From positions 9,096 to 73,095 of the forward strand of contig JBAYHH010000002.1 in the NCBI GenBank assembly GCA_041666265.1: a stretch of DNA of 64,000 bases, written 5' to 3'. Below, one piece after another: positions 611 to 61,767 of this stretch; the first letter of the stretch is position 1, and every line of letters starts with the position of its first letter. The notes under the pieces were generated by a model. It searched no databases. It was given only the letters and a program-made list of their open reading frames with translations, and had not been told where the DNA came from. A program made the position numbers and the translations under genes. The DNA comes from Candidatus Magasanikiibacteriota bacterium. Its GTDB lineage: Bacteria; Patescibacteriota; Patescibacteriia; Magasanikbacterales; GWA2-37-8.

Positions 611-3600
611 CTAATTCATCTCCGACGGCAACACGATGATGTGCCCATCATACGGAATGTAGGAATAATTGCCGGCATCGGGGAAATTCAAATTCAAACT
701 ATTTTGGTATTTACTGCAATATTGGGTGCCGTCGGATTCGCGCGCGATCGTATTGGGATTGTCCGGGAAATTATAGCAACCTCGTTGGATACCACGCGCG
801 TTTTTGGCATCGCCGGCCGCGGTCGAAGCGTAGCACCCGCCCGTGCACCAACCCCAATTATCCACGAGCTGGATGCGGGGGCGATAGGCGCAGACGATGT
901 CGCCGGTCTTGAGGAACGACCCGATGTGGGTTTCGGAAATTTCGATCTCGTCCGGCTTGAGCGGATTGGCGCCGACTTTCATGAGAGCATACGGCCCCTG
1001 CGGAAATTTCTTGTGTTGCGGGATATTATCCCAGGTGGTCGATGGCATGGGGCACTCGTAGATGTAACCGACTTCGGTGTAGCCCGCTTCGCAACCGGTA
1101 TCGTTGGAACTGCCAAAACCGCCAAAATATGTCTCGACATCGGACGGAACATTGGATAGGTAAGCATGGCACTGCCCGGTAGATTCGCCGATAGCGCAGT
1201 CTTTTGCGCTGGCACATGGCACTTCCGGATAGTTGGTGCAAAAATATTTTGTTGCATTACTGGCAAAACACCGCGGTTTGCGATTGGCGAGCGGACCGAT
1301 TGACGGCAAAGTAGCCTGATCCACATCTTTGAAAGTATCGGCAAAATCCACTTCCATCGAAGTGATCGGCATTTGGTTCGGATGCGCCCAAGAATAATAC
1401 CGAATCTTCACTTCAGCGCCGGCTTTGACCAAGATATCTCCGCGGATTTGATTATTCACGGAAAATCTGTCCAATGCGGATATTTTACAATTTCGTCCTT
1501 GATCTTCGCTGCAATCCTGGTAGATACCTTGCTCCTCATCGCCATAATGTGAACGATCCAAATCTGGCGCGGCGACGATCGGCGGAAAACGGGTGAAACG
1601 AGTCGCTCCCGGGGCAGCAGTATCAAAATATGAATTTGATTTTAATGGGTAATCAACTACTGTTTCTGAGATTCCCGGCCTTTCAGTATAATTAACTATA
1701 TGGCTATTTAATTCATAAATACCGTAAATTCGTCTGAACAATCTTTCCACCCACAAACAATAGATACTGTCTATGCTGGGCGAGCTGTTTACATTGAAAC
1801 CTGAACATTCGGTTTTAACAAAATTACTTGCTTCGTAGTCACGATTAATAAGCAAGGGGATACCGCTATCGCCAAATTCACTGAAACTACTGTCATAAGA
1901 TACTCCAAGACTAACCTGGTCACGAATTGTGCTACTATTAATATCAAACCAACCCAACGGTATTGTGTCGCCAACATCACCGCGATAATAATTGTTAAAA
2001 GTAAAATCGTATGGCCTGCCCGTTGAACGCAAATACCCGATCTCAAAAACATCCTTCATCAAGCCATATGGTTTATCGGGGACAAATACTGACCATGGAA
2101 TAATAAATTTCTTTTGAATTACGGTATCAGAAATAGATCGGTAATCATAAGGTTGACGCGCGCGCCAGGTACTTAGTAAAAAATTATTTTTACCTGCTTT
2201 CACTTGTGCGATACTGCGACAATATCCGAGAGTGATATCTTCAAAATAACCGACTACAACATATCCCAATTTCATTTCATTATCCAACGATCCGCAATAA
2301 CTTTCTCGAGCAGGTATGAACGGCGGGATATTACCTTGATCACAATCCGGTGGCACATCAAACCCTTTACATAAATCGACATTTACATACGATGTTTGAT
2401 TTGGAAATCCTGTCTCTATTGAACAAGTATACGACATCCGACGAAATCTTGATCCTGATTTTGTGATTCCAGCTCCCAAACCAGCATCCTCTTTATGATA
2501 AAATCCTCCATTAGCTATTTGAAACACAAGCGCTTTGTTATTTGTGCTCTCAATATTAGTTTCGCTAACTTTAATTTGAACAGATGAATAAGGTAAAACA
2601 TCGTATATCTGAAAAATACCGTTGTCAGCGCTACTTTCAGCATTTATATTTTCTTCGCAAAATGACCCACTGCTTTCTACGCCAGTCGTCATACAAGTTT
2701 TGTATTTTGACATCTGAGGCTGCGAAAAAGTTTGATGAAGTAAAATATATTTAATAGCATTTAGTCCTTCATGATCATCAATTATTGTCGAGCGATCAGG
2801 TTGAGTGGTTTCCCCGATATTCTTTTGTAGACGACTAATAACTTGATCGTTAGTTAAAATCGCATCTGTCCCTACTGCATTATATGTATTATCAACTCGT
2901 ATGGCTCGCCACTGATATACTGGAATTGGAGGCGACGAAGAACCGTCCAAAGTTTCTGTTAGCTGCTCAAATTTGCTCTTGATTTCCACATTTTGTCTTG
3001 TATTGGAAAGTGTGGAAACGGTATGATCTTTAATACCGGAATACAAGTTGTGATCACTGCTAATTTTGTCAAAATCAAACACCACTACTCCCGGAGCAAT
3101 CGGATAATTGCCGTGCTCCCACATGCCATTAATATTTTCGAGTGTCCAGACTGGGTCTGAATTAAGATTGATTGCTCTCGTCAAATATACTTCAGCTTTT
3201 ATTAAGCGATATTTTGTTTTGTCCCAAGTAAAATTATTCAGTACTTGTAGCTTGCCACTACCGGGATCAACCGTGCCCGATCCTAACACTGTATTAAACT
3301 TACTTTCCGTGCGACGAAATATAACATTTGTGCTTTGAGGTTCAGAATTGTGAATACATGCTAATTGCGCATCTGGGACTATCGACGACGACTGTGGAAA
3401 TACCACTCCAATATTTTCATCCAAACCCTGTCCTATGCAATCATTTTTCCAAATATTTCCATCGACAATATCGACCAACGCAGTATAGAATGGATCACCA
3501 AGCTGTAGATTTGTAATGGTATTTATACTGCTTTCGATACATTTAAAACGAGAATTATCGCCATCAAAAGTATCGCCAATATTACTATTATTGTACCATG

Positions 3601-6600
3601 TTCCACTCTCGTTTGCCGTAGCTCGATTATTCACCCCGGCCGGGCTATTCACCGGCAACCAACTAAGACACGCGTAATCGGGCGCATTGCTCATGGCCGT
3701 GCCATTGAGCGGACGGCGCAAATCATGCTCCAGACAATAACCTTTCCAGCCTGGGATTTCTTGGGTGGATTGGCGCGGGAGGCAGGTGCCGGCGAGGGTG
3801 GGGTTCTCATACACTTCAACTGTTTGCTGTATACCCAAACCACTATTTGTACACCTAAATATCAATGAAGAGTCACCGATTTGCATTTTTTCAGAAACAC
3901 CATCTGATATAGATACTGATCCTTCACAATCATGATAATAGACTTTATCGGTGCGATCACCTGCTACAAGGCAAGAATACACGCAAGTCGGCGGTGAACT
4001 ATAATTCTTCAATGACACTGAATCACCATCTTTTGCATACAAATTTCTTGGAAATGCAAGGTACTTCAAGCCAGTAGTCGCTATTCCGAAACTTGACGAG
4101 CTAAATCGATAATATGTCTTACCAACATTTGACGCATCATTTGCTGCACAATTCCACGGCTCCCCGGTCACGCTCCAATACCCTTTGGGCGCGCCACTAC
4201 TATCGAGCTCATTGGTCGGCACCTGTGGCCAATAAACAATTTTTTGATTGGACGGACTACTCCCCTCGGCGCCATATCCGAGCTTGTAATATCCACAATC
4301 ACAATCCTTCCCGCCGTTGGACTTGTCCTCACACAGTTTGACATTATCGAAACCCGGCCAAGAGCCGTCGCTCGATGACAGAGAATTTTTAAATACCGAC
4401 AACGGGAACGGCGAATTTGCCTCGGGATAACCGCGACAAGTGAATGAGCTCGTCACCACCTCGACATCGGACGGCGAAAAATGCGGCTGGTCACTGCGAT
4501 CAGTAAACATCGAAAAACCGGTGTAGTCGGGCCCGCCCCAGGTGATATCGCGATCGAGATAATTGACCATGCCGGCGCGCACGCTGAGGGCGCGATCGAC
4601 GATCACCTTGTCTTTGTCGGCGCGGGTCTCGGTGACATCGTGGGCGCATTTATTATCTCCCGAGCTGGGGAGAAATTTATCGCACACGCCGAGCATGTAG
4701 CACTCTTGTTCTTGTTTATTGGTAATCGGATTAAACCGGTAATTCGCCAGCCGGCAATAATCCCACTCGGCGCAAGCGCGGTCGGGCAAAGCTTGGACGA
4801 TAATATTGGCATCGAGCGTGCCACTGGCGATTGGCGCCACTTTTTCGCCGTTCTGGCGATTGCTGTCGCGATAAGTCAATCCGGTGTTCCAATATTTATT
4901 GACGATATCGGTCTGGTCGAGAAGCACGCACCCGAGATTGAGACTGGCCATGCCATTGCAGGCGCCGAGGCTGGGTTTGATTTTTTCGTTCATTAGTAAA
5001 TAATAACTCTGGCAGGGTTTGCCCGGCTGACAATCGTTTTTGTCGGTAAATTCGGTACAACTGTTTTGGCTAAGCGGACACTCGCCCACGAAACCGTTGT
5101 ATTTATTGTTGGTGCCATACGACCACAGATCATATTTCTGATAATCCACCAGATAATCCGGATAGCAGGCCTGCTTGTCGGTGTCGATGCATTTGGTCCC
5201 CTCGGCGCCTGAACAATCTGAGTCGACTTTACAATACGCGGGCGACTGCTCGCTGCTTTGGTCGCACCTACCCACGCCTTTCCAAAACCAGCCATAAGTG
5301 ATGCCATAGGGCGCTTTTTCGACGCGTGTTTGCCAACTGCAGATTTTTTGACCGATGACTTTGGGATCTTTAAAATACAAATCACCTTTGGACGAGCCAT
5401 ATTTATTACAACCGACTGCCTCGTTGGTGCACAAGGTGCCCGCGGAATTATTTGATCCAAAATAACCGTCCGGCAAATTTTTGACGCGCGTAGCGGTGAA
5501 TTTCGGACCGGATGGGGTGTCTGTTTGTTTGCCCGCGTCCATACAACCGACATTAGCGGCGGTGCAGGCGGATTTCTTGTCGGCTACGAGATAGATCGGG
5601 GTGGTCGAAGGGGTGTCGGCCGGAATGTGGATGGTGGAGGAAGTAATTTGGGCGGTAGTCGCGACAATATCCGCATAACTCTGATGTGAGATATTGGTAT
5701 AACACCCATAAGCGCCGGTTTCCGCGATACACGAATATTCAGTTCCACCAACCGTCACCGTTAATTTTCCGGCATCTCTTGGCCCGGGCAACCACACATT
5801 ATAATACCCTTCGCCGGTATCGCTCTGGGTATTTTGGGTGTCGATCACCGCGGTACAACCGACCGCATCCTCGCGACACAAATAACTGAAATTAGTGAGA
5901 TAAAATGGATTGTTATTTGGCGTCTGATAACGCGCGCAACCAAGGGCCTCGCCCGGCAAATTGTCGAGAGGATTGCTATCGCAAAGAGTGTTTACTGATA
6001 GAGATTTTTTGACGAGATAAATATAGTCTACCACTTCCATCAGTTTAATATTGTCAATATAGATTCGACCGGAATTATTGAGAGTAAATTTTAATTGCGC
6101 GGTCGAAGTGGCGCCGGCGAGCTCCACCGGCCCGAGATGATAATGTCTCCAAGAATCGCCGATCTCCACATCGCCGAGCGCTGTATTGGCATTATTAGCC
6201 AAGCTAATAGAAACTTTTTGCGTGCCACCGTTCGCACCCGTGCCTTTGGCCCAAAATGTCAAATCATAGCCTTTTTCCGGATTGAGTTTGAGATTTTTGG
6301 CGACAACGGCACTGCCGGCCGAAGCATAAAATGACAGCGAGTGTTCGCCGGTCTTGGTTGATTCACTGACGAGAGAAATACTGCCATTATTCGTGACCCA
6401 GCCCGCGAGCGCCTCGGTCGTAGAAGTATTTTCAAATTGATCGTAAAAAATATTACGGACATTATTGCCGGCATTGCCTTTGTAAGCGCGACAGGTCTCA
6501 ACCGCGGCCGAGCACACTCGGCTCACGCCCGCGGTGTTATTTTCACCGGCCGGCAAGCCATTGTAGTAGCAAAATCCGTCTTTGTACTCGCCATTATTGA

Positions 6601-9600
6601 AACAGAGCTCGCAATGATCGGTATTCCAATAGCCTTTTTTGGCGCTACATTCGGTTGCGTCCAAGCCGTCGGTTTCGGATTTCGCCGGCAACGCCTGCAA
6701 TTCGGCGGTATTTAATCTATAAGGCGTGCAGGTCTGCGACACCGGCACGGTCTGCGAAAGAATGCGATAATAGGTATGACCCTTATCGTCGGTAAATTGT
6801 CGACAATCCGGACTAACCGCATCGTCCCAGTCAACACTTTTTGACCCCTGGGCATACACCGTGGCATTGCAAACCAGTTTGAAATAATCCAAATCAGCCT
6901 GCGTGCGATAAAAATACGCCGGGCCGTCTTTGATCGCGTCCGCGTCCGCTTCGCCGGATTTATCTATTTTCAAAACATAACTTTTTAATTGAACACCCTC
7001 GGCTTGCGTGCTCTCGTAAGTGAAAAATTTCCCGCTTGTCGCCTGATCGGGCGTGATGCATGGGCGCAGATAGGCGTAGTAGTCGATTTTTTCCATTTGC
7101 CCCACGAGAGCGCTCATATTGGTAAAGGCGCTACAGCCCTCCTCGACAGCCGAACAGGTATTGCCGGACTTGGGGATAATATAGGCTAAATTTTGGCCAC
7201 GACTATAATTGCTCGGCATCTCGCGATAAGACGCGTAGCCCACGCATTTGGCGTCGCATTGGTCGTTCCAATTGAGCACCAGGCCATTGGCAATTTCCGC
7301 CGGATTAAATTTGCCCGGGATCTGCTCCCCGCTCGCCGAGGCCGTATACATATTACAATTTTCCTCGGCTGCGATACAGGGCTGGGCGTATTTGGCGCAC
7401 TCGGTTTTTTTCCAGGGCAATAAATTGGTGTTGATGCCATTGAGATCAGAAAGTGAATCGGGCCAGACGGTCGCGACCGATTCGGGACGGGCATTGTAGC
7501 ACCCGAGATAGTCCGGCGCCCGACGCAAATAAAGCGAGGCATCGTCGAGCGTGGCGGTATAGGCCGTGCAACCCGAGGAATTGCCGGTACAATCGGTCGA
7601 AACTTTGCCGTTGAAATGAATCGCGGTATTTTGAAAATTATTTGATGGTGTCGGCGCGCTCGCGGTGAGCCAATTACCGGCATCGTCTTTGGTCAAACTA
7701 TAAATGGCGCAACCGGCATTGTCGGCGTTGCATTTACCGGTGTCGAGCGTGCGATAAAGATAGCCGACTTGTTTGCCCGAGACATCTTTGAAACTGACAC
7801 AAGACGCGTATTGCTCCTCGCAATTGTCGGCGTTAAATTTCCAGACATTTTTTTCTTTGAGACAATAACCATAGCTCTGACAGCTCTTGCCGTCGAGACT
7901 GTAGCCCACGCACCCCTGCAAATCGGCGCATTCTTTGGAGCGATTGCCCGAGCCCGGCACCTCGATATCCGACCCGAAAACAAGCGCGTTACAGCGGTGG
8001 GGCGGGACTTTGATCACCCAATTCGGATTGATGAGGTGGCAAAACGGTTTCTTGGCATCATGGACAACATGGCCCTGCGCGTCATAGGTGCAATCATAAA
8101 ACCCGTTGACCACATCTTCGAGGGTCCAGGGGGCGTCCGGGTTGCTGTTGCGGGCGGCAATTTCAAACCCGAGCGGTAAGATGCGCGCCTGACGCATTTT
8201 TTTGACATTGCTATAACAATAGTATTTTTGATAGCACTGCGGGCTGGTGTCCTCGCTATTGGTGGGCGGGATCAGTTTGAATTTTTTGTGCAAAAGATCG
8301 CGTTGCATCGCCTGGGTGATGGTGAGATAGCGACCGGTGCTGTTGGGCTCGTTGAGCGCGGAGGCGAGGGCGTAATCGATGATACAATTATCCGGCGTGG
8401 GATTGGCCGGGCAAGCACCAAAAAGATTGACTAAATTCCATTCATCGATCGAATTGATTGGGGATTTGAGCAGATCGATAAACATCGCTTCGGCGACTTG
8501 GCGGCCGGATGCCGTGGTAGCGTCGGGATCTTTAGGATCCGGACCACCATCGTCATCCTCTGGTTTTGGTTCCCAGCTACCGTCATCATTGCCGATTTCA
8601 TCCAATCCCAATTCCGGCATCTCCGGCCAATCAAATTCTTGTTTTTTACAGACATCGGACACGCAAAATCCAAAAAGCATGCCGTTGTACATGAAGTTAT
8701 TAAGAACCTGAGAAAAAAAAGTATTAAAGAATACTGCCGGCGTGTAAATTAGCAAATCCTTCATCCCCGAAGCCATCGACGAATTGATCACCTGCGTGTT
8801 GGTCTTGGCTTTTTCCGAAGCCGATTGATTTTGAAATTCTTTTTGCATCACTTGCGCCGGAGTCTTGACATTGCCCGAGATAATATCCGACATGCCGATA
8901 GCACCCTGGCCTTCATCGCGCTGTTTCTCGGCTCCATAGGTATTCTCTTTGACGGTGCGATCGACTTTGGCGCTGGCATCGAGATAAATGCCAAGGTCGC
9001 TTTGATCGGGTTTGATGGAAAAATTAAAATTCTGCGCCATGTTTTTCCAATAGCGACTGCTCCCTACTTGTTTCCAGTTGCTCAAAAATTGGGTAAAAGT
9101 ACATTTTGGTTTTTCCGGAAAATATTTACCTTTGAGGCCGAGCCGCAAAGCCAAATCCAAAAACAAGGTCGGCGGGGCGCACAAATCGACGCCCAATATT
9201 TCACCAAGACCCTGTAAAAAAAAACCGGCCGCGTCGTTGCCCACACTCGCCATATAATCGCCGAAATTGTTGTAATGTGAAAACGGCGTCTCGCCCTTGC
9301 CACCGGCGGCGAGATAAACCGCGCTATCATAGGCGACACGCGTGATAAACGACTGAATCGCCTGCGTGATGCCCATATAGGCGGCCAAAAGCATCACTTC
9401 ATACCATTTCATCTCCACTTCTTTGGCGAAATATTTGGCGCGCAGGGCTTGGAGGACTTCGTTGATTAAGGGTAAATTTTGAAAATTATCAATAGTGGGG
9501 CCTGGTGAGACAACTGTCGTTGGTGCCCCGGGCACCTGCGCTCTCACCGACGCCGGCACGGCCAAACTCCCAAAAACCGACACCGACAAAAATACCGTTA

Positions 9601-9646
9601 CCGCGAAACAATAGACGATTTTTTTGAGTGTGTTGGGCATAAACAA
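611..9646 (-). CDS. Giant (3011 aa) secreted cysteine-rich surface protein with at least one carbohydrate-binding-module-like / jelly-roll domain
   Basis: Single uninterrupted ORF with an N-terminal signal/TM (MFMPNTLKKIVYCFAVTVFLSVSVFGSLAVPASVRAQ). It has very many Cys, NG and DG motifs. A CBM4/9-like segment is present (...LKFTLNNSGRIYIDNIKLMEV). It starts 1 nt after the upstream co-oriented gene. Confidence 0.85.
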   Translation of the reverse strand: MFMPNTLKKIVYCFAVTVFLSVSVFGSLAVPASVRAQVPGAPTTVVSPGPTIDNFQNLPLINEVLQALRAKYFAKEVEMKWYEVMLLAAYMGITQAIQSFITRVAYDSAVYLAAGGKGETPFSHYNNFGDYMASVGNDAAGFFLQGLGEILGVDLCAPPTLFLDLALRLGLKGKYFPEKPKCTFTQFLSNWKQVGSSRYWKNMAQNFNFSIKPDQSDLGIYLDASAKVDRTVKENTYGAEKQRDEGQGAIGMSDIISGNVKTPAQVMQKEFQNQSASEKAKTNTQVINSSMASGMKDLLIYTPAVFFNTFFSQVLNNFMYNGMLFGFCVSDVCKKQEFDWPEMPELGLDEIGNDDGSWEPKPEDDDGGPDPKDPDATTASGRQVAEAMFIDLLKSPINSIDEWNLVNLFGACPANPTPDNCIIDYALASALNEPNSTGRYLTITQAMQRDLLHKKFKLIPPTNSEDTSPQCYQKYYCYSNVKKMRQARILPLGFEIAARNSNPDAPWTLEDVVNGFYDCTYDAQGHVVHDAKKPFCHLINPNWVIKVPPHRCNALVFGSDIEVPGSGNRSKECADLQGCVGYSLDGKSCQSYGYCLKEKNVWKFNADNCEEQYASCVSFKDVSGKQVGYLYRTLDTGKCNADNAGCAIYSLTKDDAGNWLTASAPTPSNNFQNTAIHFNGKVSTDCTGNSSGCTAYTATLDDASLYLRRAPDYLGCYNARPESVATVWPDSLSDLNGINTNLLPWKKTECAKYAQPCIAAEENCNMYTASASGEQIPGKFNPAEIANGLVLNWNDQCDAKCVGYASYREMPSNYSRGQNLAYIIPKSGNTCSAVEEGCSAFTNMSALVGQMEKIDYYAYLRPCITPDQATSGKFFTYESTQAEGVQLKSYVLKIDKSGEADADAIKDGPAYFYRTQADLDYFKLVCNATVYAQGSKSVDWDDAVSPDCRQFTDDKGHTYYRILSQTVPVSQTCTPYRLNTAELQALPAKSETDGLDATECSAKKGYWNTDHCELCFNNGEYKDGFCYYNGLPAGENNTAGVSRVCSAAVETCRAYKGNAGNNVRNIFYDQFENTSTTEALAGWVTNNGSISLVSESTKTGEHSLSFYASAGSAVVAKNLKLNPEKGYDLTFWAKGTGANGGTQKVSISLANNANTALGDVEIGDSWRHYHLGPVELAGATSTAQLKFTLNNSGRIYIDNIKLMEVVDYIYLVKKSLSVNTLCDSNPLDNLPGEALGCARYQTPNNNPFYLTNFSYLCREDAVGCTAVIDTQNTQSDTGEGYYNVWLPGPRDAGKLTVTVGGTEYSCIAETGAYGCYTNISHQSYADIVATTAQITSSTIHIPADTPSTTPIYLVADKKSACTAANVGCMDAGKQTDTPSGPKFTATRVKNLPDGYFGSNNSAGTLCTNEAVGCNKYGSSKGDLYFKDPKVIGQKICSWQTRVEKAPYGITYGWFWKGVGRCDQSSEQSPAYCKVDSDCSGAEGTKCIDTDKQACYPDYLVDYQKYDLWSYGTNNKYNGFVGECPLSQNSCTEFTDKNDCQPGKPCQSYYLLMNEKIKPSLGACNGMASLNLGCVLLDQTDIVNKYWNTGLTYRDSNRQNGEKVAPIASGTLDANIIVQALPDRACAEWDYCRLANYRFNPITNKQEQECYMLGVCDKFLPSSGDNKCAHDVTETRADKDKVIVDRALSVRAGMVNYLDRDITWGGPDYTGFSMFTDRSDQPHFSPSDVEVVTSSFTCRGYPEANSPFPLSVFKNSLSSSDGSWPGFDNVKLCEDKSNGGKDCDCGYYKLGYGAEGSSPSNQKIVYWPQVPTNELDSSGAPKGYWSVTGEPWNCAANDASNVGKTYYRFSSSSFGIATTGLKYLAFPRNLYAKDGDSVSLKNYSSPPTCVYSCLVAGDRTDKVYYHDCEGSVSISDGVSEKMQIGDSSLIFRCTNSGLGIQQTVEVYENPTLAGTCLPRQSTQEIPGWKGYCLEHDLRRPLNGTAMSNAPDYACLSWLPVNSPAGVNNRATANESGTWYNNSNIGDTFDGDNSRFKCIESSINTITNLQLGDPFYTALVDIVDGNIWKNDCIGQGLDENIGVVFPQSSSIVPDAQLACIHNSEPQSTNVIFRRTESKFNTVLGSGTVDPGSGKLQVLNNFTWDKTKYRLIKAEVYLTRAINLNSDPVWTLENINGMWEHGNYPIAPGVVVFDFDKISSDHNLYSGIKDHTVSTLSNTRQNVEIKSKFEQLTETLDGSSSPPIPVYQWRAIRVDNTYNAVGTDAILTNDQVISRLQKNIGETTQPDRSTIIDDHEGLNAIKYILLHQTFSQPQMSKYKTCMTTGVESSGSFCEENINAESSADNGIFQIYDVLPYSSVQIKVSETNIESTNNKALVFQIANGGFYHKEDAGLGAGITKSGSRFRRMSYTCSIETGFPNQTSYVNVDLCKGFDVPPDCDQGNIPPFIPARESYCGSLDNEMKLGYVVVGYFEDITLGYCRSIAQVKAGKNNFLLSTWRARQPYDYRSISDTVIQKKFIIPWSVFVPDKPYGLMKDVFEIGYLRSTGRPYDFTFNNYYRGDVGDTIPLGWFDINSSTIRDQVSLGVSYDSSFSEFGDSGIPLLINRDYEASNFVKTECSGFNVNSSPSIDSIYCLWVERLFRRIYGIYELNSHIVNYTERPGISETVVDYPLKSNSYFDTAAPGATRFTRFPPIVAAPDLDRSHYGDEEQGIYQDCSEDQGRNCKISALDRFSVNNQIRGDILVKAGAEVKIRYYSWAHPNQMPITSMEVDFADTFKDVDQATLPSIGPLANRKPRCFASNATKYFCTNYPEVPCASAKDCAIGESTGQCHAYLSNVPSDVETYFGGFGSSNDTGCEAGYTEVGYIYECPMPSTTWDNIPQHKKFPQGPYALMKVGANPLKPDEIEISETHIGSFLKTGDIVCAYRPRIQLVDNWGWCTGGCYASTAAGDAKNARGIQRGCYNFPDNPNTIARESDGTQYCSKYQNSLNLNFPDAGNYSYIPYDGHIIVLPSEMN

Positions 9647-10703: not shown

Positions 10704-11849
10704 TTAAAGCTTCTCTGCTAATATTTTCCACTGCTCGACCGACAACTCCTGCGCTCGGACGGTGTTTTTTAGCCCCATTTCGTCAAAAACTTTGGCTAAT
10801 TCCGATTTTTTGGCGAGTGATGACAAGTTTTTTATCAAAAATTTACGACGATTGGCAAAACCGAGGCGAGCGATATCGAAAAAGCGTTTGGTGAACGCGA
10901 CAGATTCTTCGACTCCGCCCCGCCAGTCGGCGGGGCTGCGCTCAGAATGACAGGTGGGATCAATTGCCGGCTCACCGCCACTTGTCATCCCGAACGAATG
11001 TGAGGGATCTTCGTTGGTTTTACTTGTTGTTGGAGATTCTTCGCTTTGCCTGCCTGTCGGTAAGCAAGGCTCAGAATGACAGACATGGCCGATCACCGAA
11101 TCACTATTTTTTATATTTGATTTTTTATATTTGATTTTTATAATCGCGCTATCCACTTTTGGCTCGGGCCAAAAATTATCTCGGGTCACGACTGCCACTA
11201 TCTCTGGCTCGCCGTAATATTGCACAGCCAAAGATAATAGCGACATATCGCCCGGTCGCGCGCAAATTCTTTCGGCCACTTCTTTTTGCACCATCACGGT
11301 CATCGTCTCGGGCGGATTATTTGATTCTAAAAATTTACGAAGGACTTGAGATGTTATCTGGTATGGTAAATTCGCGATAACCTTATATTTTGTTTGGGGC
11401 GAGAATATTTCTTGTGAGCGGGTTATGCGACCGCAGTCGCATCCTTTCGCGCTCGCGCGCGAAAAAAGCGAACAAGATGTATTCTCGCCCCAATCAAAAT
11501 TCGCATGCAAAACATTCCCCCAGATAATTTGTAAATTTTTTATCGGAGCCAATCCCTCGCTTTGATCAGACTGACAAAATCGAGCCCAATATTTTTGTAA
11601 TTTTTTTTCAATCTCAAACGCGACCACTTGACCGGCGGTTTCGGCGAGCGCAAATGTCAGTACGCCAAACCCGGGTCCAACCTCGACCACGGTATCATTT
11701 TTTGTCACCCCCGCGGCCGCGATCATTTGATCGATCACTTCCGGGTTGATCAAATAATTCTGCCCATATTGACGGCTTGGGCGCAATCCGGCCTGCTGGC
11801 ATAAGTGTAATAAATAGTCGGGATTGAATAGCTTTTCGCGCATACTCAT
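10704..11849 (-). CDS. rsmA: 16S rRNA (adenine1518/1519-N6)-dimethyltransferase RsmA/KsgA, carrying three in-frame repeat-derived insertions
   Basis: The N-terminus has the KsgA signature ...LRPSRQYGQNYLINPEVIDQMIAAAGVTKNDTVVEVGPGFGVLTFALAE. At 381 aa it is about 100 aa longer than usual. The extra segments map exactly onto repeat DNA. Confidence 0.9.
   Translation of the reverse strand: MSMREKLFNPDYLLHLCQQAGLRPSRQYGQNYLINPEVIDQMIAAAGVTKNDTVVEVGPGFGVLTFALAETAGQVVAFEIEKKLQKYWARFCQSDQSEGLAPIKNLQIIWGNVLHANFDWGENTSCSLFSRASAKGCDCGRITRSQEIFSPQTKYKVIANLPYQITSQVLRKFLESNNPPETMTVMVQKEVAERICARPGDMSLLSLAVQYYGEPEIVAVVTRDNFWPEPKVDSAIIKIKYKKSNIKNSDSVIGHVCHSEPCLPTGRQSEESPTTSKTNEDPSHSFGMTSGGEPAIDPTCHSERSPADWRGGVEESVAFTKRFFDIARLGFANRRKFLIKNLSSLAKKSELAKVFDEMGLKNTVRAQELSVEQWKILAEKL
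10903..11082. repeat. Family-A palindromic repeat copy inserted in-frame in rsmA (encodes ...[56 protein letters not shown]...)
   Basis: The arms GATTCTTCGACTCCGCCCC...GCTCAGAATGACA and TGTCATCCCGAACGAATGTGAGGGATCT...GGCTCAGAATGACA are present. Confidence 0.85.
11104..11145. repeat. Family-C AT-rich short tandem repeat (AAAAATCAAATATA x2) inserted in-frame in rsmA (encodes IKIKYKKSNIK)
   Basis: A direct tandem is visible. Nearly the same unit sits in uvrC in the same frame. Confidence 0.7.
11393..11492. repeat. Family-B element (core TGAGCGGGTTATGCGACCGCAGTCGCATCCTTTCGCGCTCGCGCGCGAAAAAAGCGAA within a perfect 22-bp inverted repeat TTGGGGCGAGAATATTTCTTGT/ACAAGATGTATTCTCGCCCCAA) inserted in-frame in rsmA
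   Basis: It encodes WGENTSCSLFSRASAKGCDCGRITRSQEIFSPQ between conserved KsgA segments. The core is shared with the copies at 16356 and 29552. Confidence 0.8.
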
Positions 11850-13415: not shown

Positions 13416-16310
13416 TTAAAGTACGCGTTTAAGGTAGTGGCCGGTCGAGCTCACGGATTTTTTGGACACCTCCTCGGGCGTGCCGATGGCGATGATTTCT
13501 CCGCCCTTATCCCCGCCTTCGGGACCGAGATCGATGATCCAATCACAAGATTTGATCACATCGAGATTATGTTCAATCACCAGCACTGTATTACCTCGAT
13601 CCACCAGTCGCTGTAAAACCACAAGTAATTTTTTGACATCTTCGTAATGCAATCCGGTCGTGGGTTCGTCGAGCAGATACAAAGTTTTGGTCGTGCCATA
13701 GCGAGCAAGCTCGCGCGAAAGTTTGATCCGCTGAGCCTCGCCGCCCGATAGGGTCGGCGCGCTTTGACCCAAAGTCAAATAATCCAAACCGACCTCATTT
13801 AATATTTTTAATTTGTCGTAAATCATCGGGATGTCGCGAAAAAAATCTTCGGCGTCGGCAATCGTCATCTCCAAAATATCGGCGATTGATTTACCATTGT
13901 AATGCACAGCCAGAGTTTCGTTGGTAAATCGTTTGCCTTTGCACACATCGCAAACAATTTGCACGCTTGGTAAAAAATGCATCTCGATTTCGAGCGTGCC
14001 TTTGCCTTCGCAATTTTCGCATCTGCCCCCGGGCACATTGAAACTAAATCGACTATGACTAAACCCGCGCATGCGCGCTTCGGCGGTCGAGGCGAACAAA
14101 TCGCGGATATGATCAAAAGCCTTGGTATAAGTGGCGGGATTACTACGACTGGTGCGTCCGATCGCGCCCTGATCGATCGTGATGACGCCATCGAGATATT
14201 CCGTGCCGGTGACGCTGTGACATTTAACTTCTTTATCGGTGCGAAAAAGTTTGTTGATTACCGCTTGGCGCAAAACATCGTTCATGAGGGTGGACTTGCC
14301 CGAACCGGACACGCCGGTGAGACAAACAAAACGGCGCAAAGGAATCTCCACGGAAATATTTTTTAAATTATGTTCAAACGCTTTTTTGATTTTTAATTTG
14401 GGGGTCGAACTGCCGACATCGCGCCGTCGAAGCGGGAGCTCGATTTTCTTTTCTCCCCGGAGATATTGACCGGTGAGCGATTTTTTCGCGTCGCCGATAA
14501 TTGCTGTCCCAAAATTGTCATTCTGAGCGGAGTGAAACGAAGTCGAAAGCCTGCCCTGAGCGACAGTCGAATGGGAATCTATTCGCTTTTTGACGCCCTT
14601 GGATCCTTCGACTCGGCCTTGGGCCTCGTTCAGGATGACATTAACCGGACCGCTATAGACGATCTCACCGCCGTGTTTGCCGGCGCCGGGACCAATATCC
14701 ACCATCCAATCACTCTCGCGAATCGTATCTTCGTCGTGCTCCACCACGATGATAGTATTGCCGGCCTCGCACAGCGCGCGCAGAGTTTTGACGAGCTGAT
14801 CATTGTCGCGCTGATGAAGCCCGATCGTGGGCTCGTCGAGCACATACAGAGCGCCCACGAGTTTGGTGCCGACTTGCGACGCGAGCCGAATGCGTTGAGC
14901 TTCGCCGCCAGACAAAGTGCCGGCGCGCCGATTGAGGGTGAGATAATGCAGTCCCACATCATACATAAATTGCAGACGATTTTGGATTTCTTTTAGTACC
15001 ATGCCGGATATTTCCAATTCGCGCGGATCCATGTCCAATTCCGCCTGCGCGAAAAATTCGCGCGCCTCGGCGATCGACAAATTGGCCACTTCCCAAATAT
15101 TTTTTTGATGAATTTTTACCGCGAGCGCGTTGGTATTGAGGCGTTTGCCGGCGCACTGCGGACAGATTTCCGTGCTAAATAATTCTTTGGTGCCGAGACC
15201 GGTACAGGCCTCGCAATATCCATACGGACTATTAAATGAAAACAGGCGCGGTTCGATTTCAGGAAAAGAAAAACCGTCGTTCGGACACGAATACTGGGTG
15301 GAAAAAATCTGCTCATGGCCATCGGGATAAATCACGGCGCACAAACCATTGGACAAGTCGACCGCCGTTTCCACCGCTTCGGCGAGACGCTGGCTCACTT
15401 TATCTGTCATCCCGAACGAATGTGAGGGATCTCCACTCGTTCGTTTTTTGTGTCTTGGAGATTCTTCGCTTCGCCTGCCTGCCGGCAGGCAAGGCTCAGA
15501 ATGACAATCGTCATACGAAATTTTATCCACCACCACCTCAATCGTATGCTTATTATTTTTTTCCAAATCTATGCGCTCGCGTAAACTTTTTATTTTGCCA
15601 TCGACGCGCACTTCCAGAAATCCGCTATTGTAAAAATCGTAAAGCATCTGATAATATTCGCCTTTCCGACCACGCACCACGGGCGATAATATCGTCAACT
15701 CACCAACATTGTCATTCTGAGCGGAGCGAAGCGGAGTCGAAGAATCTATTCGCTTTCCATTGTTTTTAGATCCTTCGATTCGGCCCGCCGATTGGCGGGC
15801 CTCGCTCAGGATGACAGCGCTCATTTCATCGACAGTCATTTTTTCTATTCGGTGTCCGCACTGGGGACAATGAGGCACGCCCACGCGCGCGTATAATACG
15901 CGCAAATAATCATAAATCTCGGTGATGGTAGCGACGGTCGAGCGCGGATTGCCGGAGTGCGCTTTTTGATCAATGGAAATCGCCGGCGACAAACCCTCGA
16001 TCTCATCGACATCGGGTTTTTGCATACCACCCAAAAATTGACGGGCGTAAGCGGAAAGAGATTCAATATATCGACGCTGGCCCTCGGCAAAAATAGTATC
16101 AAAAGCCAAACTCGATTTTCCCGAGCCTGACAACCCCGTGAATACCACCATTTTGTTGCGTGGTATTTCCAGGTTAATATTTTTTAAATTGTGCTCGCGC
16201 GCGCCTTTGATGATTATCTTGTCTTTCATATTTGTTTTGAAACGCCAAATCGGCCCGAAAATCGAACCGCCTAAAACACTACCATGAAAAGAGCGTGGGT
16301 ATAATACCAA
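13416..16310 (-). CDS. uvrA: Excinuclease ABC subunit A (UvrA) with three in-frame family-A repeat insertions
   Basis: Two ABC ATPase modules are present ([23 protein letters not shown]; [15 protein letters not shown]), plus Zn modules and LSGGEAQRI signatures. The likely true start is MKDKIIIKG (about 16229). Three segments ([33 protein letters not shown]; [35 protein letters not shown]; [37 protein letters not shown]) coincide with repeat DNA. Confidence 0.95.
14516..14640. repeat. Family-A palindromic repeat, in-frame in uvrA
   Basis: TGTCATTCTGAGCGGAGTGAAACGAAGTCGAAAG...GGATCCTTCGACTCGGCCTTGGGCCTCGTTCAGGATGACA. Confidence 0.85.
15405..15506. repeat. Family-A palindromic repeat, in-frame in uvrA
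   Basis: TGTCATCCCGAACGAATGTGAGGGATCTCC...GAGATTCTTCGCTTCGCCTGCCTGCCGGCAGGCAAGGCTCAGAATGACA. Confidence 0.85.
15710..15816. repeat. Family-A palindromic repeat (full unit with outer and inner inverted repeats), in-frame in uvrA
   Basis: TGTCATTCTGAGCGGAGCGAAGCGGAGTCGAAGAATC...GATCCTTCGATTCGGCCCGCCGATTGGCGGGCCTCGCTCAGGATGACA. Confidence 0.9.
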
Positions 16311-16355: not shown

Positions 16356-16475
16356 CGACAAAAATAATTTACGACAATTTGTCTCTTGAGCGGGTTATGA
16401 CGCCGAAGCGTCATCCCCGAGACCTCGCGGTCGAGGAAAGCGAAAGAGATAAATTGTCGTAAATTATTTTTGTCG
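16356..16475. repeat. Family-B element: core TTGAGCGGGTTATGACGCCGAAGCGTCATCC...GAAAGCGAAAGAG within a perfect 30-bp inverted repeat (CGACAAAAATAATTTACGACAATTTGTCTC / GAGATAAATTGTCGTAAATTATTTTTGTCG); the right arm overlaps the last codons and stop of uvrB
   Basis: The palindrome is visible directly. The uvrB C-terminal codons VLKRQK* are encoded by the right arm. Confidence 0.8.
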
Positions 16476-21748: not shown

Positions 21749-21896
21749 ATAAAAAATTTAAAATAAAATATCAAAAAGCAAAAATATTTGATTTTTGAGT
21801 TTTTATATTTGATTTAAAAAAGGCGCCTTCGATTAAGCGCTTTATGCTATATTGTCAATAGTATAGCACGGGAGACAGCGCTTGTCAATAGCCAAT

Positions 21897-29540: not shown

Positions 29541-29551
29541 ATTAGATAGCA

Positions 29552-29715
29552 TTGAGACATATTTGATTCTGAGCGGGTTATATTAAGATATATTCTCATT
29601 CGTTCGATAATCATTAAAATAATTAATGATTATACTCACTCATTTCGAATATGCGCCCGCAGGCGCATCCTTTCGCGCTCGCGCGCGAAAAAAGCGAAAA
29701 ACAAATATGTCTCAA
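29552..29715. repeat. Family-B element (core TGAGCGGGTTAT...GCGCATCCTTTCGCGCTCGCGCGCGAAAAAAGCGAA with an internal AT-rich palindrome, bounded by the inverted repeat TTGAGACATATTTG/CAAATATGTCTCAA), intergenic
   Basis: Compared directly with the copies at 11393 and 16356. Confidence 0.75.
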
Positions 29716-29717
29716 TA

Positions 29718-30584
29718 CTATTTTTGGCATTTGAGACAAAAATGCGTCCCCCGCCCGGCATGGCGCGTCTTTTTTATGATTGATTTGCATCGGCGACATT
29801 TCTCGCCATCGCGCTCATATACATTGAGAAAATTATAATGCCCGCCTTTTTCCCCTTGAGCGTCGACAAAATCATCAAATGAAGTACCGCGATTTTTTAA
29901 GGCTACTTTCAACACCTCGGTGATACTGCTAAATAGTCTCTTTAATTCACCCGCAGTCAAACTTCCCGCCTTTCGCCACGGCAATAGTCCGGCGCAATAA
30001 CAAGCTTCGTCAGCATAAATATTGCCAATACCGGCGATCAATTTTTGATTCATCAGCAACGCCTTGAGATTGGTTTTTCGCCTCGCGAACAAAGCTGAAA
30101 AATTTTTGAATTTAAAATTTTCAGTCAATGGCTCGATGCCGAAATTTTCATTAAAAATTTTTTCTTTTTCATCGGCGCTCGCCAGTTTCAAATACCCGAA
30201 TCGGCGCATGTCATTGAAAAATAATTGTGATTTATCGACAAATGAAAATATAACCCGAGTAAAATTATTGGGCACTTGCAAATCACTGGGGGATATTTTA
30301 TGTCCGCCGGCCACAATCTTTTCTTTACTCCTTGTTCTTTTTTCCTTATATATGAGCTGACCGGTCATCTTGAGATGCGCGAGCAAATATTGGCCATCGG
30401 ACAATAAAAATGCCAGAAGCTTTCCCCGCCTTTCAATCTTAATAAATTTTTTTCCAACCAAAATTTTGGCCAAATTTTTATCAGCCACTTTATGGTCGCG
30501 CGCGTCAAGCGCGATAATTTTTTTATCAACTACGCGCGTCGAAAGGTCGCGCCTGATAGTTTCCACTTCCGGTAATTCAGGCAT
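29718..30584 (-). CDS. mutM: Formamidopyrimidine-DNA glycosylase (Fpg/MutM)
   Basis: N-terminal MPELPEVETIRRDL; C-terminal zinc finger CRRCKSIIKKTRHAGRGTHFCLKCQK. Confidence 0.9.
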   Translation of the reverse strand: MPELPEVETIRRDLSTRVVDKKIIALDARDHKVADKNLAKILVGKKFIKIERRGKLLAFLLSDGQYLLAHLKMTGQLIYKEKRTRSKEKIVAGGHKISPSDLQVPNNFTRVIFSFVDKSQLFFNDMRRFGYLKLASADEKEKIFNENFGIEPLTENFKFKNFSALFARRKTNLKALLMNQKLIAGIGNIYADEACYCAGLLPWRKAGSLTAGELKRLFSSITEVLKVALKNRGTSFDDFVDAQGEKGGHYNFLNVYERDGEKCRRCKSIIKKTRHAGRGTHFCLKCQK

Positions 30585-30614
30585 ACTTATCTTGGTGTGC
30601 TATTTTGTGGTGAA

Positions 30615-30677
30615 GTATTGTGCCACGCTCCTTGTGCTTCGCAGTGTCGCTTTGGCACAATACTTCACCACAAAATG
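30615..30677. repeat. Perfect 22-bp inverted repeat (TTGTGGTGAAGTATTGTGCCA ... TGGCACAATACTTCACCACAA) forming a long hairpin between fpg and uvrC; possibly a terminator for uvrC or a palindromic element
   Basis: The palindrome is visible directly. No T-run follows it. Confidence 0.5.
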
Positions 30678-30678
30678 A

Positions 30679-31941
30679 TTATCTAAGCTTCCTTTTAGAC
30701 CGATTAAATTTAATCGCGAAACGATGCGCTTCGTCGCGTACCTGAATTAATAATTTAACATTGGCATAAGCCCATTTTTGGATTTTCAGATCGCGATCGC
30801 TAAAAATAATCTCATTGTTTTTTCGTGTTGGTCCTTTGGCAATGCCAATCACCGGGGTCGTTATTTTTGCGAAAGATAAAATCGATTTAACTTTATGCAC
30901 TTGAGGCACACCGCCATCAATCAAAATTATATTCGGCATGGGCCATTCGTCATGGCGAATACGACGAGAAATAACTTCGGCTAAGCAATCGACATCGCTT
31001 TGCCCCACTACAGTTTTGATATTAAATTTCCGATACTCTGATTTTATCGGCCCACTCTCGTCAAACACTACCATGCTCCCCACTTTATCCGTATCGCCCA
31101 AATTGGAAATATCGTAGCCTTCGATGCGGATATGCCCCGTATTTCGACCGAAAAAGTGGAGATCTCTCGCTTCGTTCGGGATGACAGCGTTGGTAAACCC
31201 ACTGTTTAATAGTGCGACATCTTGAATATGACGAAGCGCTTCGATCTGATCGCGCAACCGGCCCGCCTCTTCGAAATCTCCATACTTGGACGCGAGCTTC
31301 ATGCGATTGTTTAATTGATTCAGAAGCGACCGCTTTTTCCCGGACAAAAATAGCACCAACGGTCTAATCACTTTTTGACGATAATCAAGCGCGCTAATCT
31401 CTCCACTGCACACCCCGAGACACTGTCCAATCTGACGATATAGACATGGCCTGCCTTGCTGTGGCTGACAAAATGACACCGAAAATAATTTGCGCAGTAT
31501 TTTTTCAAATTCACGCATTTTTAAATGTGGATAAGGACCAAACAATATATTTGATTTTTGATATTTTATATTTGATTTGATTTCATGCTCACGCACAAAT
31601 TTCACCTGCGGATATTTGTCTTTCGAGATCGCGATGTAATTCCAGCTTTTATCGTCTTTCCAATCAATATTATATTTCGGGCGAAATTTTTTGATTAAAT
31701 TTCCTTCGAGAATTATCGCTTCCAAGGCCGAGTCGGTGGATTGTGTTTTTAAATTTACCACCTCATGAATCATTGCTTCGATCGGACGCACAGTGCGCGG
31801 ACCGGTGAAATAACTGCGCACCCGATCACGCAAACTGGTGGCCTTACCGACATAAATTAATTCACGCTCGGAATTGAAAAACAGATACACACCGGGAGTA
31901 TCTGGTAATTTCTTTAACTTTTTTTCGATAACGCTCTTCAT
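30679..31941 (-). CDS. uvrC: Excinuclease ABC subunit C, compact form (GIY-YIG, UvrBC-interaction and RNase-H-like endonuclease domains; lacks the C-terminal (HhH)2 domain), with in-frame family-C and family-A repeat segments
   Basis: GVYLFFNSERELIYVGKATSLRDRVRSYF (GIY-YIG); ...KYGDFEEAGRLRDQIEALRHI (UvrBC); RIEGYDISN...; only 420 aa. KSNIKYQKSNIL is encoded by the AT-rich tandem repeat. Confidence 0.85.
   Translation of the reverse strand: MKSVIEKKLKKLPDTPGVYLFFNSERELIYVGKATSLRDRVRSYFTGPRTVRPIEAMIHEVVNLKTQSTDSALEAIILEGNLIKKFRPKYNIDWKDDKSWNYIAISKDKYPQVKFVREHEIKSNIKYQKSNILFGPYPHLKMREFEKILRKLFSVSFCQPQQGRPCLYRQIGQCLGVCSGEISALDYRQKVIRPLVLFLSGKKRSLLNQLNNRMKLASKYGDFEEAGRLRDQIEALRHIQDVALLNSGFTNAVIPNEARDLHFFGRNTGHIRIEGYDISNLGDTDKVGSMVVFDESGPIKSEYRKFNIKTVVGQSDVDCLAEVISRRIRHDEWPMPNIILIDGGVPQVHKVKSILSFAKITTPVIGIAKGPTRKNNEIIFSDRDLKIQKWAYANVKLLIQVRDEAHRFAIKFNRSKRKLR
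31161..31186. repeat. Family-A partial repeat, in-frame in uvrC
   Basis: GATCTCTCGCTTCGTTCGGGATGACA. Confidence 0.6.
31546..31587. repeat. Family-C AT-rich tandem repeat, in-frame in uvrC (encodes KSNIKYQKSNIL)
   Basis: Coding strand: AAATCAAATCAAATATAAAATATCAAAAATCAAATATATTG. Confidence 0.7.
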
Positions 31942-35587: not shown

Positions 35588-35638
35588 AGATCCTTCGCTT
35601 CGCTCAGAGCCTGCCCTGAGCTTGTCGAAGGGATGACA
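35588..35638. repeat. Family-A partial repeat, intergenic (AGATCCTTCGCTTCGCTCAGAGCCTGCCCTGAGCTTGTCGAAGGGATGACA)
   Basis: Shares its arms with the other family-A copies. Confidence 0.7.
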
Positions 35639-61078: not shown

Positions 61079-61193
61079 CAAAAAAACCGATTTACGGTAA
61101 TATAAGGCCACTTTTTAAGATATAAAAAATGAAGAATTAATCATCAAAAACCAGTATTTTTGATTTTTGCTTTTTTATATTTGATCTAATAAT

Positions 61194-61574: not shown

Positions 61575-61767
61575 AAAAACACGGATAATGATATTCTGAC
61601 AAATTATGATTGACGAGGTAAATTTGTAGACGAGCGGGAGCGGTCCGTCAGGATTTGAGCCAATGTGTGACCCGCCTCGCGGCGGGGAGTTTTGGCTCAA
61701 AAGCGACCGCGAGTCACAAATTTCGAGTCAGTCATCAATTTGGAAGAATATTATTATCCGTGTTTAG
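61575..61767. other. About 190-bp structured intergenic element bounded by an imperfect 19-bp inverted repeat (AACACGGATAATGATATTC / GAATATTATTATCCGTGTT), containing nested GC hairpins (GAGCCAA...CCCGCCTCGCGGCGGG...TTGGCTC); candidate small ncRNA or MITE
   Basis: Inverted repeats and internal stems are visible. There is no convincing ORF; the track ORF 61655-62131 is antisense to uvrA2. Confidence 0.35.

Follow-up and report, generated by a model that had tools for sequence, protein, structure and literature searches.

Family B, an interspersed palindromic repeat of Magasanikbacteria with a conserved apex and variable arms

Three Family-B copies in the window

We analyzed a 64,000-nt stretch of a Candidatus Magasanikiibacteriota genome (assembly GCA_041666265.1, contig JBAYHH010000002.1, positions 9,096 to 73,095; hereafter the window), which carries three copies of an interspersed palindromic repeat, Family B. 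Copy 1 lies in ksgA/rsmA, copy 2 at the uvrA–uvrB junction, and copy 3 between a GT2 gene and fpg (Table 1). Genes around all three copies are on the - strand, so the copies are antisense to their neighbors. Each copy has a core, opening with the 12-mer TGAGCGGGTTAT, at the tip of a hairpin. This 12-mer occurs exactly three times in the window, only on the + strand (11415, 16387 and 29570); allowing up to two mismatches adds 11 matches, all unrelated, and the resulting total of 14 was reached in no shuffle. A covariance model (CM) trained on 68 Family-B copies from other genomes matched the same three places and no others. The E-values of these matches (Table 1), all on the + strand, bear out the original prediction, made from the window sequence alone, that three elements share one core.

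The flanking inverted repeats of the three copies rank I1, I2 and I8 among the 17 strongest short-range inverted repeats of the window. They had been described as perfect repeats of 14–30 bp, different in each copy. The arms do differ, over 14–32 bp, but they are near-perfect only. Copy 2 has a predicted folding energy of -67.2 kcal/mol (z = -10.9). Copy 1 is not intergenic, a point the original prediction overlooked: it sits in frame within ksgA/rsmA (10704-11849, - strand) and adds ∼30 residues. Its core is antisense to ksgA, and the frame stays open through it, giving the translation SLFSRASAKGCDCGRITRS.

In copy 3, a nested hairpin sits between TGAGCGGGTTAT and the first of the two small hairpins of the core (hp1 and hp2), turning a three-way junction into a four-way one. 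Its hp2 is that of copy 1, a variant absent from every other genome examined. The perfect part of its right arm stops 2 nt short of the fpg stop codon (29718-29720, - strand), and the extended arm overlaps the stop. The copy 3 sequence is the same in three independent assemblies (ENA, JGI and Logan), whose fpg contigs are identical through the element. One Logan contig (L193, from SRR6484324, 977 nt) terminates within copy 3, and in contigs L191 and L192 the copy is covered by a spurious 41-residue gene call.

The right arm of copy 2 had been proposed to encode the last residues and stop of uvrB (VLKRQK*), the element thereby supplying the 3' end of the gene. The stop and last three codons (R, Q and K) do lie inside the arm, but V, L and K lie outside it. 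Among 80 relatives, UvrB C-termini follow the pattern LRDE(V/I)xxLK(K/R)xxK*, with tails such as ELKRGK*, QLKKNQK* and ELKRKK*. A contribution of the element to the uvrB 3' end is not established. VLKRQK* resembles these native tails, and by this comparison the tail of the window gene looks native rather than element-derived.

Core fold, arms and distribution

An alignment of 68 distinct copies defines a fold of three helices. Helix cells are paired at 89.6% (67.3% in shuffles), 391 cells are changed on both sides (121 in shuffles), and 21 of 25 pairs covary; slid controls reach only 41–48% pairing. The conserved unit is a core of 56–60 nt plus 2–9 closing base pairs. From the outside inward, the arms form an outer helix, P1, followed by a basal helix, 5'-UGAGC/GCGAA-3' (U:A, G.A, A.G, G:C, C:G), and a three-way junction that contains hp1 (lengthened by GGG/CCY beyond a UU bulge), hp2 (UCGC loop) and an AAA linker. 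The register of the basal helix is backed by variant copies in which the tandem G.A pairs give way, by compensating changes, to Watson–Crick pairs (UUGGC/GCCAA, UUUGC/GCAAA, UGAGC/GCUCA, UAAGC/GCGU), and by one copy with an additional G matched by an additional C. 'Type II' cores, copy 2 included, have a second tandem G.A within hp2 (YGAG/CGAG).

A scan of the core against Rfam 15 gave nothing at gathering score; at E-values up to 10, only generic long-hairpin (miRNA-type) matches appeared, far under threshold. No Rfam CM for the hammerhead, twister, twister-sister, pistol, hatchet or hepatitis delta virus ribozymes matched, and the hammerhead, twister, pistol and hatchet cores did not fit by eye either. 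A kink-turn was also rejected: tandem G.A is present, but no bulge separates it from the GC/GC that comes next on both strands. A kissing interaction between the hp1 and hp2 loops was dropped as well, the loops showing no covariation. Literature searches on palindromic repeats of the Candidate Phyla Radiation (CPR) and on sequence strings of the element found nothing relevant, and Family B is apparently a previously undescribed repeat.

The two strands of the element are not equivalent. On the strand reading TGAGCGGG, G.T pairs in the arms outnumber A.C pairs by 91 to 31 (p = 5e-8), in an alignment blind to the type of non-Watson–Crick pair. This strand folds more stably than its complement in 78 copies, versus 23 for the reverse. 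With the core plus 10 nt of each arm, the counts are 79 versus 30 with RNA parameters and 74 versus 30 with DNA parameters. The element strand is favored in the ksgA copies too, although these lie antisense to the only evident transcript. Together with the conserved tandem G.A, this preference suggests that a single-stranded form, RNA or DNA, has been selected.

RNAfold placed all 102 testable copies at a hairpin apex, each with 11 pairs or more, and the arms are 90% Watson–Crick paired across 100 non-redundant copies. Outward from the core (positions -1/-2 and +1/+2), the closing pairs are T:A in 92% and then T:A in 80%. Another 7–13 bp of AT-rich inner stem is conserved by lineage, e.g. AATTACCTT-core-AAGGTNRTT or, in another lineage, GTTTGATATTTTT-core-AAAATTATCAAAC; in the metagenome-assembled genome (MAG) CAZHYJ, conservation of the inner arms extends to 13–23 nt. 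Arm positions 10–19 hold only 0.0–0.2 bits of information, yet are richer in G+C. The family-wide profile has an A-run on the left (50–70% A at -20 to -29) and a T-run on the right (45–59% T at +20 to +26). Outer arms are local sequence, often terminator-like, and core-less bidirectional terminators of similar style occur in the same genomes. The three window copies have AT-rich arms that lack both a terminator base and a T-run.

Within a genome, identical 56–58-nt cores with the same inner stem stand within unrelated outer arms (five and four times in JBAYGI; L081, L086 and L090 in CAZHYJ), and two unrelated loci of one genome (L090 and L101) have common 19-nt arms around different cores. The positional profile of the arms revealed no single terminal inverted repeat conserved genome-wide. 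The proposal that copies have no conserved terminal repeat is supported, but copy-specificity of the arms is incomplete, given the inner 2 bp, the lineage-specific 7–13 bp and the common arms of L090 and L101. Flanking direct repeats are not in excess (mean longest common match 6.12, versus 6.25 in mismatched controls). No conserved target tetranucleotide was seen, and apart from YTT the left flanks are variable.

One genome per GTDB species was scanned with the exact pattern, which gave at least 110 matching stretches, of which ∼100 are genuine copies. Those listed come nearly all from Candidatus Magasanikbacteria or related Patescibacteria/CPR MAGs, more than 15 in number. Genomes of ∼1 Mb hold dozens of copies (at least 15 in JBAYGI), and the CM finds 113 in 743 kb. 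The CM found no Family-B copy in 375 kb around uvrB of 80 metagenomic relatives. IMG/VR, scanned with the core pattern and with a 25-nt arm of copy 2, returned no match, and hence nothing to suggest that the element came from phages or that its arms are spacer-like. By its KsgA homologues, the window organism falls among Magasanikbacteria with no close relative, the next-best KsgA being 63% identical. Seven MAGs titled 'uncultured Gammaproteobacteria' (CAZHYJ, CAZXEV, CAYZHG, CAZXFG, CAYXJO, CAZEYR and CAZQRI) also carry Family B. They share genes with Magasanikbacteria MAGs at 75–85% nucleotide identity, and their titles are probably wrong.

Approximately 98% of roughly 105 copies are intergenic, the exception being those in ksgA, which supports the proposal that the shared cores are repeat DNA and not a conserved protein motif. 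A search for further copies by in-frame peptide was dropped, the invariant translated stretch being only four residues. In strings of co-directional genes, 35 copies are antisense and 21 sense; 22 lie between convergent and 8 between divergent genes. Orientation is mixed within single contigs (JBAYGI010000002, JBAYGI010000003, CAZHYJ010000001), and in 38 cases the stop codon of a neighboring gene falls within the hairpin. Promoters are not enriched: -10-like boxes number 15 upstream of the hairpin and 18 on the mirrored side. The lack of an orientation rule and of an enriched promoter fits an element with no orientation-dependent role for the host.

Filled and empty sites, and other repeats of the window

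The ksgA locus allows filled and empty sites to be compared. In the empty-site relative P0059/L194, the ksgA loop reads GAATTATCTTCGTCCCAA (CGC GCA GAA TTA TCT TCG TCC CAA TTT AAA GTC) and has no palindrome. The filled genes read ...core CAA GAA TTG TCC TCG CCT... in L074 and ...core CAA GAA ATA TTC TCG CCC CAA... in the window, and in both the ksgA frame stays open through the element. The window arm beside KYKV matches the native loop of P0059/L194 at 15 of 19 nt, a score reached by none of 5000 shuffles; for L074, the corresponding arm score was reached by 9 of 5000. The native loop of a further homologue, P0005 (AIISLKSY), likewise resembles the window arm (EIFSPQTKY). The opposite window arm is not homologous to the empty site, its score being reached in 853 of 5000 shuffles; it is the native arm's inverted complement. 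Arms at this site span 29 nt in the window versus ∼21 nt cleanly paired in L074. At ksgA, these comparisons directly support templated copying of the target in inverted form. The affected surface loop of KsgA, between WGNVL and YKVVANLPY, also holds in-frame inserts from many palindromic repeat families (homologues P0008-P0106). Two further KsgA loops carry inserts in this clade, and protein lengths range from 268 to 379 residues.

Intergenic sites gave a different picture. In four orthologous comparisons (L088/L039, L007/L004-L087-L091, L034/L052 and L003/L087; flank identity 70–83%), the empty spacer is 0–14 nt long and the whole hairpin region of 100–195 nt is missing, with no pre-existing hairpin. 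Simple homing into terminator loops is hard to reconcile with these sites. The original prediction suggested asking whether the flanks are inverted duplications of the target site: at ksgA one arm is native and the other its inverse, but at these intergenic empty sites neither arm is recognizable. A clean intergenic filled/empty pair is L021/L026 (flank identity 81–83%). In the filled site, the end of the upstream gene may be present three times (direct, inverted, core, direct), though the signal is weak (p ∼0.02–0.03) and the sequence AT-rich; L021 has a candidate long imperfect duplication.

Family B also evolves in place. Between orthologous copies, arms change by paired substitutions that keep complementarity; at L008/L029, 5–6 double changes fall within 10 bp of arm, and flanks are 76% identical. 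In the series L022/L024/L045/L058, the far arm follows each species' own gene tail. At three orthologous loci, the core is flipped relative to its flanks (L044/L075, L060 versus L066/L068, and L082 versus L066:6980). Cores are genome-specific, which points to conversion limited to the core or to its repeated transfer by itself. Varying flanks had been taken to suggest a special mode of insertion. The inverted copy at ksgA speaks for such a mode, but arm diversity alone is no proof of it, because arms also change in place.

Several other repeats were noted in the window. Family A (GTCATTCTGAGC-hairpin-GAAGCGAAGAATC; minimal form CTGAGCGAAGCGAAG) shares the UGAGC/GCGAA tandem-G.A basal helix with Family B and lies in frame inside uvrA and ksgA, yielding peptides. 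Its minimal form contains GCGAAGC, the sequence of a very stable DNA mini-hairpin (PMC13037366). A larger hairpin, 'B2', has an apical core reading GAGCGGGAGCGG, a UCGC loop and AAAGCGACCGC (in short, GAGCGGG, UCGC loop, AAAGCGA). Neither the Family-B CM nor Rfam matches this hairpin, which appears to be a larger and distant relative of Family B. A similar element lies just downstream of uvrB in L111. The uvrC–fpg spacer contains a perfect 24-bp inverted repeat (30602-30625 / 30653-30676) around a 27-nt G+C-rich loop (CGCTCCTTGTGCTTCGCAGTGTCGCTT), which may be another hairpin-capped element with a different apex. An AT-rich + strand motif, TTTGATTTTTGAnnTTTTATATTTGATTT (family D1), occurs in 11 spacers of the window (e.g. 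21778-21815, 31541-31578 and 61150-61187) and may serve the - strand genes as a promoter or operator signal. Directly downstream of the ksgA region is a 3011-codon open reading frame (611-9646, - strand).

Table 1. Family-B copies and related repeats in the window
Feature	Position	Strand	Description
Copy 1, CM match	11405-11482	+	90.7 bits, E 6.6e-24
Copy 1, inverted repeat (I2)	11387-11415 / 11472-11500		29 nt, 90% complementary, 14-bp perfect core
Copy 1, left arm	11387..11414	+	I2; ksgA sense strand reads QEIFSPQTK; native ksgA loop sequence
Copy 1, core	11415..11472	+	58 nt; TGAGCGGGTTAT, hp1 (GCGAC/GTCGC), ATCC, hp2 (TTTCGCGC/GCGCGAAA), AAAGCGAA
Copy 1, right arm	11473..11500	+	inverted copy of left arm; codes NFDWGENTSC in ksgA
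Copy 2, CM match	16377-16454	+	92.1 bits, E 2.5e-24
Copy 2, inverted repeat (I1)	16356-16387 / 16444-16475		32 nt, 97% complementary, one G:T
Copy 2, left arm	16356..16386	+	I1; in uvrA 5' region
Copy 2, core	16387..16444	+	58 nt, type II; hp2 (CCGAGACC/GGTCGAGG) with its own tandem G.A pair
Copy 2, right arm	16445..16475	+	outer 12 nt are uvrB stop and K, Q, R codons on - strand
Copy 3, CM match	29636-29708	+	56.5 bits, E 7.5e-14; 5' part split off at 29560-29581
Copy 3, inverted repeat (I8)	29546-29568 / 29699-29721		23 nt, 91% complementary, 14-bp perfect core
Copy 3, left arm	29546..29569	+	I8; perfect 14 bp at 29552-29565; abuts GT2 gene start (ATG 29540, - strand)
Copy 3, 5' core segment	29570..29581	+	TGAGCGGGTTAT
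Copy 3, nested hairpin insert	29582..29652	+	AT-rich, ∼70 nt, splits the core
Copy 3, 3' core segment	29653..29698	+	hp1 (GCGCC/GGCGC), ATCC, hp2, AAAGCGAA; repeat family D8
Copy 3, right arm	29699..29721	+	perfect 14 bp at 29702-29715
Family A	15455-15508, 15708-15735		in uvrA
Family A	10905-11075		in ksgA
Family A	35593-35607
Family A	63876-63890
B2	61577..61765	+	189-nt hairpin (I4), -100.9 kcal/mol, z = -12.5

Origin of the hairpin and its alternatives

In the reading that we tentatively favor, Family B is a selfish palindromic element that uses flanking DNA to build and maintain its hairpin, by intrastrand template switching. The template-switching mechanism, the selfishness and any activity as a terminator are all things we infer. 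The conserved unit would be the core with a few closing pairs, and the outer helix would derive from local sequence, not from an imported fixed terminal repeat. At least in ksgA, one arm would be the target and the other its templated inverted copy. After insertion, intrastrand template switching between the arms would preserve complementarity, and may lengthen the arms into the flanks or flip the core. Ectopic conversion or repeated core transfer would homogenize cores within a genome. The element would be tolerated where long hairpins do little harm, such as terminator positions, gene ends and a permissive surface loop of KsgA, and its hairpin probably doubles, incidentally, as a bidirectional terminator or RNase III target. 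Polymerase template switching between the arms of inverted repeats is known to homogenize arms, invert the spacer and expand the repeat (PMC8604942, PMC13100816, PMC7202029). Each of these signatures has its counterpart in Family B: paired arm changes, core inversion at three loci and arm extension in ksgA.

A more specific idea, rather doubtful in our estimate, is that insertion manufactures the hairpin itself: the core would be placed beside the target, and 15–30 nt of target would be copied inverted on its other side. A further direct copy may also arise (direct, inverted, core, direct), as hinted by L021/L026. If true, Family B would be mobile without having ends of its own, its 'terminal repeats' being templated anew at each target, a mode of insertion undescribed for bacterial repeats.

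Several observations weigh against an origin of the arms by template switching. The native-arm result comes from one locus in two genomes, which possibly share a single insertion event; neither arm is recognizable at the 0–14-nt empty sites; the target-derived arm of L021/L026 reaches only p ∼0.02–0.03; and arm-like sequence is not in excess elsewhere within 200 nt of copies. Paired arm changes could also come from ordinary compensatory evolution of a selected helix. The better fold of the TGAGCGGG strand is not obviously predicted by a purely mechanical DNA process. The unpaired core nucleotides are unchanged between the window and L074 copies in ksgA, where flanks are only 66% identical, and this looks like purifying selection on a function, unless it reflects conversion from other copies. 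In the KsgA tree, the empty-site P0059 is sister to the filled L074 (74% identity), so precise loss or independent insertion must be assumed. Window KsgA is closer to the empty P0002 (70%) and P0005 (67%) than to L074 (60%), and the two filled genes have the same insertion codon and the same unusual G:C closing pair. The history could be one old insertion with precise losses, two independent hits on a hotspot, or horizontal transfer.

Alternatively, and possibly, though we doubt it, Family B is a structured RNA module used by the host. It would act as a protein-binding or processing signal at the tips of terminator or 3'-untranslated-region hairpins, or as a small RNA, with the arms as helix P1, which could covary like the stems of other RNA families, and with spread as whole hairpins. 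Strong covariation in all three helices agrees with this, as does the 91-to-31 preference for G.U over A.C on the core strand. Tandem G.A is present in >95% of copies, its Watson–Crick replacements being confined to low-scoring variants, and hp2 of type II has a second one; unpaired positions do not vary between lineages, nor in the ksgA copies. Copies lie at gene 3' ends, with convergent pairs well represented, and have A/T tracts. Transcription speaks against an RNA. In co-directional contexts, 35 copies are antisense and 21 sense, so that most transcripts reading through would contain the complement; the only obvious transcript of ksgA runs antisense to its copies; and -10-like boxes are as given above (15 versus 18). 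The core is also flipped between orthologous loci, and Rfam gives no match up to an E-value of 10. A separate and improbable reading is a small mobile unit: a core with ∼9 bp of inner stem would home into the apical loops of existing hairpins, chiefly bidirectional intrinsic terminators. Outer arms resemble the genomes' own terminators (A-run, a G+C-richer stem of 6–12 bp, T-run), the same cores and inner arms sit within different outer arms of one genome, copies lie at gene ends, and 38 neighboring stop codons fall inside hairpins. But the ksgA empty site has no palindrome, the hairpin is absent from the 0–14-nt empty spacers of the four orthologous comparisons, and the AT-rich arms of the window copies have no terminator base or T-run.

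More improbable still is an ordinary element derived from a MITE (miniature inverted-repeat transposable element), a REP (repetitive extragenic palindrome) or IS200/IS605, mobilized in trans by a transposase and with terminal repeats decayed in old copies. The lineage-conserved inner arms (up to 13–23 nt in CAZHYJ) and the dozens of copies per ∼1-Mb genome could be so explained; the two subterminal hairpins recall IS200/IS605 ends, and the strand preference is compatible with a single-strand intermediate. Against it, hp1 and hp2, equally free to covary, are near-identical among copies with nothing common in their arms. Flanks have no excess of direct repeats (6.12 versus 6.25), a conserved target tetranucleotide was not seen, single contigs contain copies in both orientations, and the IMG/VR scans gave no copy. 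Chance similarity, or an assembly or amplification artifact such as inverted chimeras, has a negligible probability. One Logan contig does stop within an element, but the sequence is the same in three independent assemblies, over 15 MAGs together hold over 100 copies, some of them at orthologous positions, and CM E-values go down to 1e-24. Copy distribution, CM scores and independent assemblies together refute this explanation.

Family B can be compared with several known systems. REPs and REPINs, mobilized by RAYT, are also short, abundant, mostly extragenic palindromes with long hairpins, often at gene ends, and are thought to act as folded single strands. Their arms are conserved and their loop variable, however, whereas in Family B the apex is conserved and the arms vary, and no GTAG-type motif was seen. 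Rickettsia palindromic elements (reviewed with MITEs in PMC10969869) stand in frame in essential genes and are read through, as Family B is in ksgA, where the frame stays open, and Family A is in uvrA and ksgA; the likeness is one of behavior only, with no sequence relationship. Those elements are ∼150 bp long, have ends conserved family-wide and are often intragenic, unlike Family B with its ∼98% intergenic copies and arms of local sequence. SPRITE, ERIC and Correia elements likewise occur at gene ends, form stable RNA hairpins that can resemble RNase III sites or Rho-independent terminators, and are able to invert. Unlike Family B, in which neither feature was found, they are bounded by conserved terminal inverted repeats and by short target duplications of fixed length (TA for Correia); classical MITEs, too, have conserved terminal inverted repeats and a target-site duplication of fixed length, which Family B lacks. 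IS200/IS605 ends and PATEs share with it the lack of terminal inverted repeats, two subterminal hairpins and a strand-specific fold, but its hp1 differs from hp2, and neither a conserved target tetranucleotide nor a bias with contig or replication direction was seen; nor was a TnpA, no search aimed at transposases having been made. In integron attC sites, the R''/R' boxes at the base are conserved and the center varies, the reverse of Family B. Quasipalindrome mutagenesis by template switching accounts for near-perfect arms, growth of repeats into flanks and inversion of the spacer, here the core (PMC7202029, PMC8604942, PMC13100816). It is a mutational process and not an element family, however, and leaves the origin of the core and its invariant unpaired bases unexplained.

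Mitochondrial double-hairpin elements and GC clusters are small, mobile-looking units of two conserved hairpins that invade spacers and occasionally coding regions. They differ from Family B in host compartment and sequence, and have no long copy-specific outer helix. Among interspersed palindromic repeats, Family B is unusual in its conserved apex and variable arms. It is also unusual in that, on evidence from a single locus, the target forms one arm and an inverted copy of it the other.

CPR/Patescibacteria have tiny genomes with nearly no spacer DNA, yet dozens of highly structured copies are found here, some in essential genes. In practice, assemblies break at these elements, gene calls are lengthened or split by them, and CPR annotations acquire spurious peptides. 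If the core is an RNA signal, it would be a new, widespread three-way-junction motif whose tandem-G.A helix is common to a second repeat family. If instead the arms are built from the target, Family B would offer a natural system for the formation and maintenance of palindromes by template switching, and a warning that covariation and G.U bias can arise around DNA palindromes.

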